Sequence record: PP488543.1
DNA length: 64,000 bases
Direction: 5' to 3' (one strand)
Source: Escherichia phage BP9
A program made the position numbers and the translations under genes. Each line of letters begins with the position of its first letter. The first letter of the stretch is position 1. Shown piece after piece: positions 56,938 to 63,146 of the stretch. The notes beneath the pieces were generated by a model. That model searched no databases, had not been told where the DNA came from, and saw only the letters and a program-made list of their open reading frames with translations.

Positions 56938-57288
56938 TCAGTAGATGTTTTGTTTAATCTCTATTCCAAACTTTTTAAACGAGTCAGCTGCAAGCATGAA
57001 TTTACGAGCCGCTGATGGATTAGAAGTATGCACGAAAATCTTCACGTTGTCAACTACAGGAGGCTTACCAAATACAAATTTTTCCTCCAACATAGATAGG
57101 CAATCGTACCCTTCGAATACCTCTCCAAGGTCGTTGTCCATATGCCACTCAGAAACGCGTCTGTAGAGCTTTTTATTATCGTTAATAAAATCCATAAACT
57201 CGGAGGAATTCTTTAGCCAAATAGCGTCTGGGAGCCCATAATTTGAAGGATCTCTCAGATCATCCAGCCACACAATCAACTTCTTCAT
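56938..57288 (-). CDS. hypothetical protein (116 aa)
   Basis: ATGA coupling to the RNA ligase-like gene; MKKLIVWLDDLRDP...VHTSNP. Confidence 0.45.
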   Translation of the reverse strand: MKKLIVWLDDLRDPSNYGLPDAIWLKNSSEFMDFINDNKKLYRRVSEWHMDNDLGEVFEGYDCLSMLEEKFVFGKPPVVDNVKIFVHTSNPSAARKFMLAADSFKKFGIEIKQNIY

Positions 57289-58220
57289 TGCATATAGTCC
57301 TCGTTGTGGAAATAGTGGTCAAGTATCTCACGGCGTTCCTGCTCCAGGAGGCAGTTCCACACATCTTCTGTGTAATTGCTACGAATGAAGTTTACCATGC
57401 CGTAAAACTCTTCATCAACACGTTTAAAGATATCATCATCCCAAATCTTCCAAGCTTTACCCCTCATTACGGCCTTCCGTGCCAGATAGTATGGAGACTT
57501 GATCTTCAGCTGCAGGTCGTAAGGGTAGTAAGGCTTACGGATCATATACCCTTCACCTCTTGTTTCTGCAGCTAATTCTTTTGCATAGCTGAACGGAATT
57601 TCACGCACAGTGTGAGGACGTTTTGCACCAAGGTATTTGGCAATCCCATCTAAAGCTGCTTCTGGTAGCATTATTCCAGAATCATTATATCTGCAACCTA
57701 TCAAATATGCGCCATGATCTTCTTGAACAATATGCGGATCTGAAGGGTGACAAATTTCAAACATGAATGTCATGTTTTCATTGCCCATAACCTTCTTGAT
57801 AAGATCTAAATTACCACATTGCTCCTGGATGGTTTCCTTTGCGAGGTTACAATATGGAGAATCAAGAGATCCGGTTGTTGAGAACAATAGTTCACCTTTA
57901 TGAGATGATACCACACCGAGGAATCCGTTCTTTTTCTCTACCGCAGTCACAAGTTTACTGTCCGGTAGGTTGGTGGAGTTTTCTCCCAAGTTAAACACTT
58001 TTGTGAAGGGCCATGCCACAACATTTCCTTCATTCCCGACAACAATGCCTCGGCACTCCAGTAAACGAGGGGACAAATGCCATAAATTGTTGTAAAATAC
58101 TTTTCTAGCATATTTATAGATCTTTAACCCGAGATCTGGGTAATATCTGCTGGTTACAAGACCTTTGTCAACTAGGTCGTCTGCATTAAAATACTTCATC
58201 ATACGTTCCTCATTTGTCAT
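57285..58220 (-). CDS. RNA ligase-like nucleotidyltransferase
   Basis: K-x-N-G (VEKKNGFLG), F-E (MTFMFEICH), EG motif (GEGYMIRKP), K-x-K (LKIKSP); distinct from the DNA ligase at 53531. Confidence 0.5.
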   Translation of the reverse strand: MTNEERMMKYFNADDLVDKGLVTSRYYPDLGLKIYKYARKVFYNNLWHLSPRLLECRGIVVGNEGNVVAWPFTKVFNLGENSTNLPDSKLVTAVEKKNGFLGVVSSHKGELLFSTTGSLDSPYCNLAKETIQEQCGNLDLIKKVMGNENMTFMFEICHPSDPHIVQEDHGAYLIGCRYNDSGIMLPEAALDGIAKYLGAKRPHTVREIPFSYAKELAAETRGEGYMIRKPYYPYDLQLKIKSPYYLARKAVMRGKAWKIWDDDIFKRVDEEFYGMVNFIRSNYTEDVWNCLLEQERREILDHYFHNEDYMQ

Positions 58221-58263
58221 TTTGTCAGTCTATCCTGCCACACAAATAACCTAGTGTCAACAC

Positions 58264-58292
58264 TTGAAATTAACAAAACAGTTAGGTATACT
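58264..58292 (+). promoter_or_regulatory. sigma70-like promoter (TTGAAA-17-TATACT) in divergent region
   Basis: Track ORF start at 58264 is the -35 TTG; real start at 58321. Confidence 0.45.
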
Positions 58293-58320
58293 ATCGTTGA
58301 AATTAAAACGGAGGGTCACT

Positions 58321-58728
58321 ATGTCTAAAATGCTATATATCGTGCGTGGTCTACCAGGGTCTGGCAAATCAACACTGGCAAATGCGCTATCTTTAGAGGG
58401 TCTGTATCCACATTTTGAGAACGACATGTTCTGGTACGACGATGATGGAAATTACAACTGGGATGCAAGTAAAGTCACACTTGCAGCAAAATGGTGCAAA
58501 GATAACGTAGAAGATATGATGCGTATGGGATACGACCGTATCGTGGTAAGTAATACGTTTACAAAAGAAAAATATGTGCAAAAATATATTGACATGGCAA
58601 TCAGTTATGGGTATAGTTATACCGTAATCGTGGTTGAAAACCGCCACGGTAATAAAAGCATTCATGCTTCAGACGAGGTTGTGGATCGTATGGAACGCCA
58701 ACTTAAAAACTGCATTAAACTTAAATGA
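58321..58728 (+). CDS. P-loop polynucleotide kinase-like protein
   Basis: ATG after GGAGGG; Walker A GLPGSGKST; 135 aa. Confidence 0.55.
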   Translation: MSKMLYIVRGLPGSGKSTLANALSLEGLYPHFENDMFWYDDDGNYNWDASKVTLAAKWCKDNVEDMMRMGYDRIVVSNTFTKEKYVQKYIDMAISYGYSYTVIVVENRHGNKSIHASDEVVDRMERQLKNCIKLK

Positions 58729-58735
58729 GGAATGT

Positions 58736-59290
58736 ATGAAATACTTTGTAACAAGCGACACACACTTTCTCCACCAGCGGGTCATGGAGTTTGATTCATG
58801 TCAAAAACACAGATCTCAGTATGATCACAATCTTGACAGTATGAATGCGGGAATCATCGCCGAGTGGAACTCTGTTGTGTCACCTGCAGACACTGTGTTC
58901 CACTTGGGGGATATTGCGTGCACTAATGATAAGAATATCAACAACTTACTTCCAGATATTCTAAATATGTTGAACGGACATATTATTCTTGTTCGTGGCA
59001 ACCATGACACAAGGACGACTGTCAGAATTATGAAAGAGTTCTATCATGAGGTTGTAGATTATTACGAGCTTCGCCACAACAAGAATTTGATCTGTATGAG
59101 CCATTACCAATTTGCAAAGTGGAACAGAAAGCATCACGGATCAGTCCAACTGTTCGGTCATGCTCACGGAACCACACAACAGTTGTTTGGCAGGCAGCTT
59201 GATGTCGGTTGGGATGTGTGGGGGAGACTCTTACCATTAGAAGAGGCATACCGTATTGCAATGAGTTTTGCTATTGACAGCGGGGAGTAA
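58736..59290 (+). CDS. calcineurin-type metallophosphoesterase
   Basis: SDTHF, HLGDIA, VRGNHD, GHAHG metallophosphatase motifs. Confidence 0.65.
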   Translation: MKYFVTSDTHFLHQRVMEFDSCQKHRSQYDHNLDSMNAGIIAEWNSVVSPADTVFHLGDIACTNDKNINNLLPDILNMLNGHIILVRGNHDTRTTVRIMKEFYHEVVDYYELRHNKNLICMSHYQFAKWNRKHHGSVQLFGHAHGTTQQLFGRQLDVGWDVWGRLLPLEEAYRIAMSFAIDSGE

Positions 59291-59337
59291 TCCCTGCTAT
59301 TTTAAAGAAAATTGCCACACAAGGAGAATCAGGAGAT

Positions 59338-59688
59338 ATGAAAGATGGGGATAAGCTGCTATATCTTAAAGTCCCCCTTGAAATACTGTCTATGTCAAAA
59401 GTTTTGAATGACACAACTGGAGAGGTTGTTGTTCTTGACTTGTATGACAAGATTGTATACTGCTACCTGCACAACTGGTATAAGCTTGGAGGAAATTCAC
59501 GCTTCACACCCAGCACAAGGAAAATTGCAGCAGATGTTGGGATAAAGAAAACAAAAGCAGCAGCGTGCGTTAAAACTTTAGAGTGTGCAGGGGTGGTTGA
59601 AACATCCACACAAGGGAGAGGTAAAAGATGCACATTTTCCAAAGTTTTGCCGCCAGAAGAAGTTATTCGAATGTCAACAACTGGTTAG
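59338..59688 (+). CDS. putative HTH DNA-binding protein (116 aa)
   Basis: RBS AAGGAG; helix-turn-helix-like TRKIAADVGIKKTKAAACVKTLE. Confidence 0.45.
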   Translation: MKDGDKLLYLKVPLEILSMSKVLNDTTGEVVVLDLYDKIVYCYLHNWYKLGGNSRFTPSTRKIAADVGIKKTKAAACVKTLECAGVVETSTQGRGKRCTFSKVLPPEEVIRMSTTG

Positions 59689-59763
59689 ACCAGTAAAAAC
59701 TTAAATATCTGTACTATAAGGATTTGTATGTTTTATGTTCACCATGGAACAGAAACTATTAAC

Positions 59764-59823
59764 TGTCCGTCACGCGGACACATCTGTCCGTAATACGGAC
59801 ACTAACTGTCCGTGATACGGACA
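59764..59823. promoter_or_regulatory. three tandem palindromic operator-like sites TGTCCGT-N3/5-ACGGACA
   Basis: 59764-59780, 59785-59801, 59807-59823; centres 21-22 bp apart. Confidence 0.5.
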
Positions 59824-59960
59824 CATAAAGAATATAACTAAAATAACTAAATAATAAAAAATAAAAGATCTAGTACTTATGGTACTAAGTACATATACTT
59901 AACTTATGTAGAATATACTAGATCCTAAGTACCATGTTTTAAATTTATTACTTTCTATAG

Positions 59961-60180
59961 GTAGTGTCGGCCCTTCATTGGCACTCGCCTACGAGGGGCG
60001 AGATGCCGGGCCTCTATAGTGCACACAATAACAGAAGTGCATACATGCAGGACTGTTAACATGTGTGGGAGCGAAGCGATAGCGCAGGCCAAAGGCCGAG
60101 CACTAATGTGGACCACCGACGAAAGCTTGCCAGCGCCGGAAGGAGTCGGTTGAGAGCCTCCCGCGCGAGTTCGGATAAAG
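59961..60180 (+). ncRNA. GC-rich stem-rich segment: candidate structured RNA (class unknown)
   Basis: About 60% GC island in AT-rich DNA; multiple nested complementary segments; no ORF; strand not determined. Confidence 0.3.
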
Positions 60181-60327
60181 TTTATGTGTGGAAACTGACA
60201 AGAAGGTCCCTAAATCGCTCCACAGCTATATAAACTATACCAAGTAAGGCAATCGCACCAGTTTGATAGAAAAGCTCGTTACAAAGCGATACAGTGAGTT
60301 TTTCTATAACTTGAAGAGGAGGCTGCT

Positions 60328-60906
60328 ATGAGTTCACGCAAAGATGCCCGTGAAAAGATTGCAAAACGTTATCAGGATGAAGAACAGATGGAGAAAACTT
60401 TCAAGTGGAAGCCAGGTTTCCAGCGTAATCATTCTAACGCTCGTGATCGTAAGCATCCGGATAAGTGGTTAACACCGCCAAATGATGGCATGCAAGTCGG
60501 TGATGAGAAAGAGCTATCGCCTGGAAAAGATGGCAACTACATTCGCACTAAGGAAGCAGGTCCAAAGGATGACAGCTATCTTGTAGATAAGGTTCTTGAT
60601 GGTATTGATGTAGATGTTGACACTGCACGAAACCTTTTTCTTGGTTGGTATCGTACAGGGTTTTTCGACATCAAGGCTATTCGTCGTGTTTGTGATATTA
60701 AAAAGTCTGCCTATGATGATGACTCTCTACATCGCACTCTGAGACAATACTCAGAGAGATATGGTCATCCAGTTATCACTCTTGACGATATTAACGAAGT
60801 GCTGTATCATGCAGAGGTTGTTGCAGGTAGATTCGGTGATGCATATCTCGGTATTCTTTCTGCAAAAGATGAGGTAATGTTAAATAAAATTTACTATGAA
60901 CGCTGA
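60328..60906 (+). CDS. hypothetical protein (192 aa)
   Basis: RBS GAGGAGG upstream of ATG. Confidence 0.55.
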   Translation: MSSRKDAREKIAKRYQDEEQMEKTFKWKPGFQRNHSNARDRKHPDKWLTPPNDGMQVGDEKELSPGKDGNYIRTKEAGPKDDSYLVDKVLDGIDVDVDTARNLFLGWYRTGFFDIKAIRRVCDIKKSAYDDDSLHRTLRQYSERYGHPVITLDDINEVLYHAEVVAGRFGDAYLGILSAKDEVMLNKIYYER

Positions 60907-61105
60907 GGAGCGCTTAATGAACAACCCGGTAGCAAAGAACTGTAATAAGTTCAACAAGTCTGCAATTCACACTGACAGGAAAAAGGGATGGTCCCCTGAT
61001 ATTGACGAGGAGCTTGAGGATTACTTTGAAGGTCTTGCCATCAACGCGGAGGAGATTGCGATTAAAGAATACGCAGACAGGAAGGATAAGGCCGGAATCT
61101 GTTGA
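60896..61105 (+). CDS. hypothetical protein (69 aa)
   Basis: Overlaps previous gene end; RBS GAGGAG. Confidence 0.4.
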   Translation: MNAEERLMNNPVAKNCNKFNKSAIHTDRKKGWSPDIDEELEDYFEGLAINAEEIAIKEYADRKDKAGIC

Positions 61106-62206: not shown

Positions 62207-62281
62207 GCCCTGTTAGCTTAGTGGATAAAGCAGCGGCCTTCTAAGCCGTTGACACTGGTTCGAGTCCAGTACGGGGTGCCA
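62207..62281 (+). tRNA. tRNA-Arg (anticodon TCT)
   Basis: Hand-folded cloverleaf: acceptor GCCCTGT/ACGGGGT, D-stem GCTT/AAGC, anticodon loop CTTCTAA, T-loop TTCGAGT, encoded CCA. Confidence 0.7.
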
Positions 62282-62411
62282 AGTTCTTTTTAATGTAGCT
62301 TACTTTAGCAGAGTAAATCTTCGGCAAGTGGCGGTAACCACTTTACCGATACCTCATAGTTAGTGGTTAGAACACTAGCTATTTTAAAAAGAATTTAAAT
62401 ATTAGTATTTA

Positions 62412-62499
62412 GGTGAGTTAATTCCGTAGGGGTAGCGGGGCAGACTGTAAATCTGTTATCATTGCGATTCGGGTGGTTCGACTCCATCACTCACCACCA
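62412..62499 (+). tRNA. tRNA-Tyr (anticodon GTA), long variable arm
   Basis: Acceptor GGTGAGT/ACTCACC, anticodon loop CTGTAAA, T-loop TTCGACT, CCA encoded; D-arm irregular in hand fold. Confidence 0.55.
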
Positions 62500-62613
62500 A
62501 ATTTATATTTTTAGATGCATAAATCATACAGATAATGGCATTGATATTTATCGTCGTTTATACTAGTCACTAACTGCTCGAAAATCAGTGTCATTATCAG
62601 TATAATTTATAAA

Positions 62614-62704
62614 GGAGGGTAGGGAGCAATGGTGCTCAAGCGGTCTTGAAAACCGTCCCATTGAGGATGACTCGATGATGGTTCGATTCCATTACTCTCC
62701 GCCA
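62614..62704 (+). tRNA. tRNA-Ser (anticodon TGA), long variable arm
   Basis: Acceptor GGAGGGT/ACTCTCC, anticodon loop CTTGAAA, ~20-nt variable arm, T-loop TTCGATT, CCA encoded. Confidence 0.6.
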
Positions 62705-62802
62705 CATTGTTGACCTTGTAATTAAGCGAAAGCCGGAAGCAGAACCGGATTATCAAATGTTACAGTCGTCATCGCCGACTAGCAACATGGTCAACATACT
62801 GA

Positions 62803-62901
62803 GCTAGGTAAGCCCTTTGGCAAGGGCGAGGATTTTTAATCCTGAAAATAGACGAGGTAGTCGTTGAATACATAGGTGGTTCGATTCCACCGCCTAGCAC
62901 C
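62803..62901 (+). tRNA. aberrant tRNA-like element (99 nt; anticodon-loop TTT, oversized variable region)
   Basis: Acceptor GCTAGGT/GCCTAGC, D-arm GCCC/GGGC, loop TTTTTAA, T-arm GGTGG-TTCGATT-CCACC, but ~30 nt between anticodon stem and T-arm. Confidence 0.3.
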
Positions 62902-62906
62902 TTTTT

Positions 62907-62982
62907 GCTGATGTAGCACAATTGGTAGTGCAATTGATTTGTAATCAATAGGTTGCAGGTTCAAGTCCTGCCATCAGCACCA
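62907..62982 (+). tRNA. tRNA-Thr (anticodon TGT)
   Basis: Acceptor GCTGATG/CATCAGC, D-stem GCAC/GTGC, anticodon loop TTTGTAA, T-loop TTCAAGT, CCA encoded. Confidence 0.75.
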
Positions 62983-62983
62983 A

Positions 62984-63058
62984 GGCCCTGTAGCTGGAAG
63001 GTTCAAGCAAGCGACTCATAATCGCCAGACGGTGGTTCAATTCCACCCAGGGCCACCA
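62984..63058 (+). tRNA. tRNA-Met (anticodon CAT; Ile2 not excluded)
   Basis: Acceptor GGCCCTG/CAGGGCC, anticodon loop CTCATAA, T-loop TTCAATT, CCA encoded. Confidence 0.7.
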
Positions 63059-63069
63059 AATAGTAAATA

Positions 63070-63146
63070 CTCCGCGTAGCTCAGCTTGGTAGAGCGCCTG
63101 ATTTGGGATCAGGAGGTCGAGTGTTCGAATCACTCCGTGGAGACCA
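63070..63146 (+). tRNA. tRNA-Pro (anticodon TGG)
   Basis: Acceptor CTCCGCG/CGTGGAG, D-stem GCTC/GAGC, anticodon loop TTTGGGA, T-loop TTCGAAT, CCA encoded. Confidence 0.75.

Follow-up and report, generated by a model that had tools for sequence, protein, structure and literature searches.

A phased palindrome array beside a small winged-helix gene as a probable replication origin in an rV5-like phage

Downstream of a small winged-helix gene in a phage of the genus Vequintavirus lie three near-identical palindromes, phased by two turns of the helix and adjoined by an extremely AT-rich tract. Judging from sequence comparison, it is likely that this locus is the replication origin of the phage, or its primary early origin, and that it is built like oriλ and the origins of the RepA_N family. 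From this arrangement we infer that the 116 amino acid product of the gene binds the palindromes, that the DNA is unwound, that a replisome enters and that replication proceeds in both directions; the array and the protein may also have a secondary, regulatory role. An origin is preferred over a set of transcriptional operators because the protein resembles replication initiators, because arrays of the same palindrome are found in initiator genes elsewhere and because the most meltable AT tract adjoins the array.

Much of what is expected of an iteron origin is seen here, namely at least three dyad repeats, a phasing of about two turns and an adjoining, easily unwound AT tract. Two further features are not: the array does not lie inside the initiator gene, and the protein does not have a C-terminal domain that recruits partners. 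Elements of this kind are well known and the PHROG label of the 116 amino acid protein already hints at its role, whilst the searchable literature yielded no description of a Vequintavirus origin or of a TGTCCG iteron family. The modest wider interest of the locus lies in its minimal initiator and in the recurrence of one exact palindrome in the initiator genes of very different phages.

The phage and the gene neighbourhood

The window, by which we mean the whole stretch of 64,000 nucleotides that was analysed, was placed by a megablast search with positions 58600-60950. This matched 119 phage records, 117 of them with at least 80% query coverage and mostly with 95-99% identity. With few exceptions these records are of Escherichia phages belonging to Vequintavirus (rV5, FV3, Murica and nomo among them), and on the strength of these matches the window is identified as a section of the genome, ~137 kb in size, of an rV5-like virulent myophage. 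Eighteen records in the MG0656xx series (MG065690 and MG065652, for example) are entered as 'Campylobacter phage' with Campylobacter jejuni as host and are ~96-97% identical to the rV5-like region; the host and organism labels of these records look doubtful.

Genes between ~22 kb and 58.2 kb of the window, including those for ribonucleotide reductases, ThyX, DNA ligase, Sir2 and RNA ligase, are on the − strand, and genes from 58.26 kb onwards are on the + strand. The features discussed below are collected in Table 1. An RNA-repair-like gene set (57285-59290) adjoins the tRNA cluster, and sister genera arrange these genes differently. ARAGORN calls a 99-nt tRNA-like gene at 62803-62901 with a four-base anticodon (atcc) and no amino acid assigned, which appears as 'tRNA-OTHER' in the nomo annotation.

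The 116 amino acid gene is most often called 'putative transcriptional regulator' in the matched records, otherwise 'DNA-binding protein' or 'hypothetical protein', and newer pharokka-style annotations name it 'replication initiation protein'. In the nomo record a 'repeat_region' feature covers the palindromes, without explanation. Three sister genera (Henunavirus, Mydovirus and Seunavirus) have another gene order, with neither an ORF79 homologue nor an array at the corresponding place. The gene and the entire non-coding module are restricted to Vequintavirus, and the module is therefore not an origin common to the whole subfamily.

Table 1. Features at and around the candidate origin (positions are those of the window)
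Feature	Position	Strand	Remarks
T4 Rnl1-type RNA ligase	57285-58220	−	
AAA_33 kinase	58264-58728		
Metallophosphoesterase	58634-59290		
Sigma-70-like promoter	59274-59303	+	TTGACA-18-TATTTT, extended −10 TG; 10/12 match; corresponds to rV5 P76
Winged-helix protein, 116 amino acids, rV5 ORF79 homologue	59338-59688	+	Proposed origin-binding initiator; N-terminal DNA-binding domain only
Iteron 1	59764-59780		TGTCCGTCACGCGGACA; TGTCCG-TCACG-CGGACA
Iteron 2	59785-59801		TGTCCGTAATACGGACA; TGTCCGT-AAT-ACGGACA; TGCCCG in most relatives
Iteron 3	59807-59823		TGTCCGTGATACGGACA; TGTCCGT-GAT-ACGGACA; adjoins AT tract
AT-rich tract, candidate DNA-unwinding element	59825-59866		39/42 bp A+T (93%), A-rich on + strand
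Nested inverted repeats, conserved block	59867-59935		Two GATC sites; nearly invariant in relatives; part of the conserved core
First inverted-repeat pair, GATCTAGTA/TACTAGATC	59867-59875/59916-59924		
Second inverted-repeat pair, ATGGTACTAAG/CTAAGTACCAT	59879-59889/59925-59935		
GC-rich non-coding block, conserved	59955-60250 (about)		Single strand may be highly structured
tRNA cluster	62207-63146		

A palindrome array found once in the genome

A sequence-only reading of the window had described three near-identical palindromes with centres two helical turns apart, downstream of a gene for a 116 amino acid HTH-like protein and followed by further inverted repeats. All of this is borne out. 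The ORF is present and its product is a winged helix-turn-helix protein by profile matches and by model; the palindromes occupy 59764-59823, beginning 76 bp 3′ of the stop codon; their centres (59772, 59793 and 59815) are 21 and 22 bp apart; and two pairs of inverted repeats were found within 59867-59935. With at most one mismatch, TGTCCG-N5-CGGACA is matched three times in 64 kb, each time in the array, against an expectation of 0.02 from 100 dinucleotide shuffles, in which there were never as many as three.

That reading had also proposed a genome-wide search for additional sites, which yielded none. With the same tolerance there is no site outside the array in the window, and in the complete genome of the relative Aya (136,399 bp) the only sites are the four of the homologous array. 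No half-site was found at the gene's own promoter (59274-59303), and motifs from the array region recur elsewhere in the window only as chance 12-mers. We know of no LexA, DnaA or other host-factor box that the palindrome fits.

Four copies, with the extra 21-bp unit at the 5′ side and a spacing of 21/21/22 bp, are present in nine of the 11 relatives in which the whole array is covered. Both the window and phage nomo have three, the fourth having been lost or never gained, and the change in copy number within the genus is one of exactly one 21-bp unit. In 13 relatives the half-site hexamers are kept, with a single recurrent exception (T to C at position 3 of one copy, turning TGTCCG into TGCCCG), whilst there is free variation in the central 5 bp and over ~25 bp 5′ of the array. 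Conserved half-sites around a variable centre are the pattern predicted if the two half-sites are recognised by a symmetric dimer. Three Logan contigs of relatives from independent metagenomes (L186, L187 and L188) end inside or just after the array, probably as assembly breaks arising from the repeats or from copy-number polymorphism.

The AT tract and the conserved DNA beyond it

The tract that adjoins iteron 3 ranks first among the 63,959 segments of 42 bp in the 64 kb, having both the lowest duplex stability (nearest-neighbour energy) and the highest AT content, and the homologous tract in the complete 136-kb Aya genome also ranks first. Two more of the ten least stable segments in the window flank the array. 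Low stability is accompanied by strong conservation: across 59800-59950, which takes in the last iteron, the AT tract and the inverted repeats, divergence counted from BLAST-based mismatches is 0.7-1.3% among six relatives versus ~4-5% in flanking coding DNA, making this the most conserved 150 bp in the surveyed 5 kb. Considered as a cruciform or hairpin, the inverted-repeat block is of no significant stability (z = −1.2).

Beyond the inverted repeats comes the GC-rich block, for which the predicted minimum free energy is −101 kcal/mol (z = −3.2, either strand). An Rfam search of the intergenic region returned no family, the one sub-threshold match (rli43) being a chance one. The core of the block is almost invariant in nine genomes, which vary too little for compensatory pairs to appear (none was seen). 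The block is present only in the 118 Vequintavirus records and contains no convincing ORF, the next gene starting at 60328; in rV5 a doubtful 56 amino acid 'ORF 78' is annotated within it and there is an 18-bp deletion there. An sRNA, an mRNA leader and a single-strand priming signal are all conceivable roles for the block, which may or may not belong to the origin.

Transcription and GC skew around the array

The promoter upstream of the 116 amino acid gene has an annotated homologue, P76, in rV5. A scan confined to sigma-70-like promoters found none on the + strand between 59304 and 60690; on the − strand a weak match (9/12) lies at 59741-59713, upstream of the array. The rV5 annotation, too, has no promoter at the array. 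As no terminator-like site was found between the promoter at 59274-59303 and position 60328, transcription from P76 probably reads through the initiator gene and the whole of the element.

Cumulative GC skew reaches its minimum ~1.5-2 kb from the array, in the window as in the whole Aya genome. This minimum coincides with the point of divergent transcription, the genes on either side pointing away from the array, and forks leaving the array would therefore run co-directionally with transcription on both sides. The equivalent change of skew in rV5 (66675-66725) was judged by the authors of the rV5 genome paper, who examined both GC and AT skew, to be linked to transcription, and they left the origin undefined. 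Because skew is confounded with the direction of transcription, as those authors noted, we regard it as consistent with an origin and not as independent evidence for one.

A small protein related to replication initiators

Profile searches with the 116 amino acid protein point to a winged-helix initiator. Its two best Pfam matches are borderline, lying below their gathering cut-offs: DUF6945 (PF22182) with 27.4 bits against a cut-off of 28 (E = 3.8e-6, profile positions 3-78 of 83) and HTH_36 (PF13730) with 24.5 bits against 25 (E = 2.3e-5). Other Pfam matches are weaker and generic to winged helices. Precomputed tables list PF13730, marked 'weak', for the close homologues P0001 and P0003. Among the PHROGs, phrog_12838 ('replication initiation protein') is matched with E = 5e-80, followed by five more initiator or λ-O-like families with weaker scores (E about 0.03 for λ-O-like) and by a single 'transcriptional regulator' family that is weaker than these. 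Neither Pfam nor PHROGs gave a match to terminase or ParB/ParG-like families.

The family is an isolated one. A word search of 5.8 billion proteins returned close relatives only (5 matches) and an exhaustive HMMER search returned eight proteins, so that no deep alignment is possible; a search of IMG/VR for related loci with the protein found none. Three of the more remote homologues, P0008, P0009 and P0011, belong with the HTH_36 proteins and have matches among phage initiator and DnaD-like loader families. Those of their contigs for which DNA could be examined are short and showed no clear iteron array. On the contig of P0011 (L192), three GTACC-N7-GGTAC-like palindromes with AT-rich DNA between them lie at 64-313, upstream of a 217 amino acid HTH_36/DUF6945 relative, and may be the origin of the element that encodes P0011.

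AlphaFold gave an unusable model from the single sequence (pLDDT 39) and a usable one from a six-sequence alignment (pLDDT 78.8, pTM 0.75). The latter has an N-terminal β-hairpin, a three-helix winged helix-turn-helix, a β-hairpin wing and, after the wing, one short C-terminal helix; a partner-recruiting C-terminal domain is absent. The nearest relative in sequence and among solved structures is the N-terminal domain of PLE RepA (PDB 4RO3; E = 3e-6, ~27% identity), which has been placed in RepA_N by structure (PMC7145576). With the RepA_N structures 4PQL, 5KBJ and 4PT7 the resemblance is one of fold, Foldseek giving E = 8e-4 to 3e-3 and a TM score of ~0.54, whilst phmmer is not significant (E about 0.8) and the Pfam RepA_N profile (PF06970) is not matched. 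A search for a separate ORF that might supply the C-terminal domain gave no candidate: ORF77, the neighbouring ORFs and the ORFs downstream of the L081, L012 and L131 arrays (described below) show no similarity.

The same palindrome in other initiator genes

IMG/VR was searched for two TGTCCG-N5-CGGACA palindromes 2-10 bp apart, a query for which, by rough estimate, ~0.01 chance matches are expected. Twenty-one contigs unrelated to rV5 were found, with a GC content of 40-70% and arrays of 2-7 copies spaced by 18-34 bp, mostly by 21-23 bp (among them loci L012, L042, L081, L090, L091, L123, L124 and L131-L143). As controls, a shuffled half-site matched no contig and the λ iteron matched one. 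The majority of the independent families have their array within an ORF whose PHROG matches are to replication-initiation or λ-O-like families (phrog_270, 345, 391, 678 and 16167), just 3′ of the part that encodes the winged helix. Compared by profile-profile alignment (hhalign), the N-terminal domains associated with these arrays match the rV5 family over the helix-turn-helix and wing with 90% probability (E = 1.8e-6).

In two of the families the protein is small, as it is in rV5. At L081 it is an HTH_36 protein of 133 amino acids that scores above the cut-off (34.8 bits), and the array lies towards the 3′ end of the gene; on L131, a 169-kb phage contig of 40% GC, the array follows immediately 3′ of the stop codon of a 120 amino acid protein. 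Several of the arrays also adjoin AT-rich patches, with 78% AT against a background of 35% in L132 and 75% against 34-39% in L135, L138 and L141. For several GC-rich array-bearing contigs, our searches gave no initiator ORF.

Arrays of this pattern are found in cellular genome assemblies too. The genomes of 185,579 species contained 39 loci (L145-L181 among our records), and across the array-bearing viral contigs and bacterial assemblies GC content ranges from 40 to 73%. Of ten array-bearing ORFs that were scanned, three had family matches, all of them to O-like or DnaD-like initiators, and these three belong to prophage-like loci of Actinoplanes, Treponema and Parachlamydiaceae; the other seven, from Myxococcales and from other high-GC or MAG contigs, gave no family match for the ORFs tried.

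Comparison with known origins

At oriλ about four iterons, each an inverted repeat of the form TCCCTC-AAAAC-GAGGGA, are bound by the N-terminal domain of the O protein, a flanking AT tract is unwound and the origin is activated by transcription (PMC7466680). The rV5-type locus likewise has 6-N5-6 inverted repeats in about four copies, a phasing of about two turns and an AT tract directly at its flank; its putative binder is again the N-terminal DNA-binding domain of a phage initiator, and transcription would again pass through the origin. Copy number varies among relatives in both cases, Stx phages having six repeats. The two differ in that the rV5-type array lies outside the gene, 76 bp beyond its stop codon, in that the matches of its protein to λ-O-like PHROGs are weak, in that this protein, unlike λ O, comprises the N-terminal domain only and in that an rV5-like phage brings its own replisome.

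RepA from the Vibrio cholerae satellite PLE has been shown to be an initiator, its N-terminal domain binding semi-palindromic iterons in a non-coding region (PMC7145576; Barth et al., NAR 2020). Its partner is the replisome of phage ICP1, and it needs an SF1B helicase (PMC7145576). This is the closest relative of the 116 amino acid protein, and rV5 encodes both a PIF1/SF1B helicase and an ICP1-related polymerase. At ~27% identity the relationship is a distant one, however, and PLE RepA, the protein of a satellite and not of the phage itself, has an extra C-terminal domain, whilst its iterons, which are longer and of another sequence, converge on a poly-A tract.

In the RepA_N proteins of plasmids pSK41 and pTZ2162, a winged-helix N-terminal domain of ~120 amino acids dimerises or oligomerises and binds four Rep boxes; ori adjoins or lies inside the part of the gene that follows this domain, the linker that ori encodes is dispensable and, in pPR9, an HTH_36 N-terminal domain in place of the RepA_N domain still supports replication (PMC5703833). 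The IMG/VR arrays resemble those of λ O and pSK41 Rep in lying inside initiator ORFs just after the winged-helix part. The plasmid initiators differ from the protein of the window in coming from Firmicutes plasmids and in carrying a DnaG-binding C-terminal domain. In λ O, pSK41 Rep and PLE RepA alike, the C-terminal domain recruits partners or is thought to do so, whereas the 116 amino acid protein has no such domain.

A possible route to initiation

Initiation at the locus might proceed as follows. Dimers of the 116 amino acid protein would bind the 17-bp palindromic iterons (three here, four in most relatives), and the spacing of 21-22 bp would place these dimers on one face of the helix to give a bent complex resembling the O-some. 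The resulting strain could open the 42-bp AT tract (59825-59866), probably with the aid of read-through from the upstream sigma-70 promoter, and the phage's own T7/ICP1-type replisome would then enter the opened tract. An initiator with an N-terminal domain only, lacking a C-terminal domain that recruits a loader, could suffice for this because a T7-type helicase-primase can load itself on exposed single strands.

The replication proteins of rV5 are described in its genome paper as a Pol A polymerase (gp228), a gp4/DnaB-like primase-helicase (gp230) and a PIF1-like helicase (gp237); according to the same paper, the genome is circularly permuted and the ICP1 polymerase is among the closest homologues of that of rV5.

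A broader proposal, which we advance tentatively and regard as possible but doubtful, is that TGTCCG-N5-CGGACA is the conserved 'origin code' of a single clade of HTH_36/RepA-NTD-like initiators found in phages and prophages of many bacterial phyla, in genomes of 40-70% GC. The rV5 type would then be the minimal, N-terminal-only form, which bends the iterons and melts the AT tract; a self-loading T7/ICP1-type helicase-primase, possibly with a PIF1/SF1B helicase, would enter without a loader, and the GC-rich block would serve as a single-strand priming signal.

Alternative functions for the array

The sequence-only reading took the palindromes for operators, and such a role deserves the most attention among the alternatives: by binding cooperatively to the phased sites, the 116 amino acid protein would act as a repressor or activator, controlling either a promoter nearby or read-through into ORF77 and the genes downstream. 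Its winged-helix fold is shared with regulators of the MarR, CodY, CRP and LexA types, most GenBank records call it a putative transcriptional regulator, and proteins bound between P76 (59274-59303) and ORF77 could act as a roadblock. Like the operators OR1-OR3 of the λ repressor, the array consists of three to four short palindromes that small HTH dimers encoded nearby could bind cooperatively (putatively so in our case). Operators overlap promoters, however, and are usually duplicated at other promoters, whereas the rV5-type array overlaps none, is unique in the genome and adjoins its most AT-rich tract. The + strand has no sigma-70-like promoter between 59304 and 60690, the − strand has only the weak 9/12 match upstream of the array, rV5 has none annotated there, and neither the gene's own promoter nor the rest of a complete genome contains a site. 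Regulation would leave the adjoining extreme AT tract unexplained, matching arrays in other phages sit within the coding sequence of initiator genes and the best characterised homologue of the protein is itself an initiator. We therefore think it unlikely that the array serves mainly as operators, and leave this reading some weight partly because phage-specific promoters lie beyond the scan and because initiators can, and often do, regulate transcription as well. What stands of the earlier reading is the cooperative binding of phased palindromes by a dimeric HTH protein encoded nearby, which is plausible and consistent with all of our findings; the operator label itself is not supported, given the lack of an overlapping promoter and of further sites, the initiator-like protein and the adjoining AT tract.

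Two other functions have little support. HTH domains and repeat arrays are also a feature of small terminases and centromere binders, and the array could be a pac or partition-type site at which the small protein, as a recognition subunit, marks the genome; the site is unique, lies ~4 kb upstream of the large terminase gene and belongs to a circularly permuted genome of headful type. This is highly improbable to our minds, since the protein matches no terminase or ParB/ParG-like family in Pfam or PHROGs and the structure nearest to it is that of an initiator N-terminal domain, terL is separated from the site by tRNA genes and several ORFs, homologous arrays elsewhere are embedded in replication-initiator genes and a virulent phage would not obviously need partition. 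Action in the P76 transcript, where each palindrome could form a stem of 6-7 bp with a loop of 3-5 nt, is scarcely credible either. If P76 is active, the sites would be transcribed, there being no intervening terminator, and three or four consecutive hairpins might stabilise, process or attenuate the mRNA. The stems are short, however, and lack a U-tail, and the terminator scan found none; conservation follows the half-site sequence, with no compensatory changes, and the recurrent change from TGTCCG to TGCCCG would replace a U-A pair by a C·A mismatch. Phasing by 21-22 bp, the occurrence of the motif on either strand of initiator genes and the adjoining AT tracts all point to recognition of duplex DNA. 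An origin of replication, by comparison, is the reading that we favour.

Significance

Phages of the rV5 type are widely isolated and are candidates for therapy and biocontrol against E. coli O157 and other strains. A defined candidate origin (59764-59866) with its initiator (59338-59688) would aid their engineering, for example through origin-bearing plasmids or conditional replication, and a defined origin would also help in reading read-depth data from infections. Through the comparison with PLE RepA and ICP1, it would help in understanding satellites and defences that target replication. Its recurrence elsewhere makes the palindromic iteron a possible means of predicting origins in metagenomic phage contigs; should the shared 'origin code' prove true, the origins of many uncultured phages could be predicted with one search for the motif.
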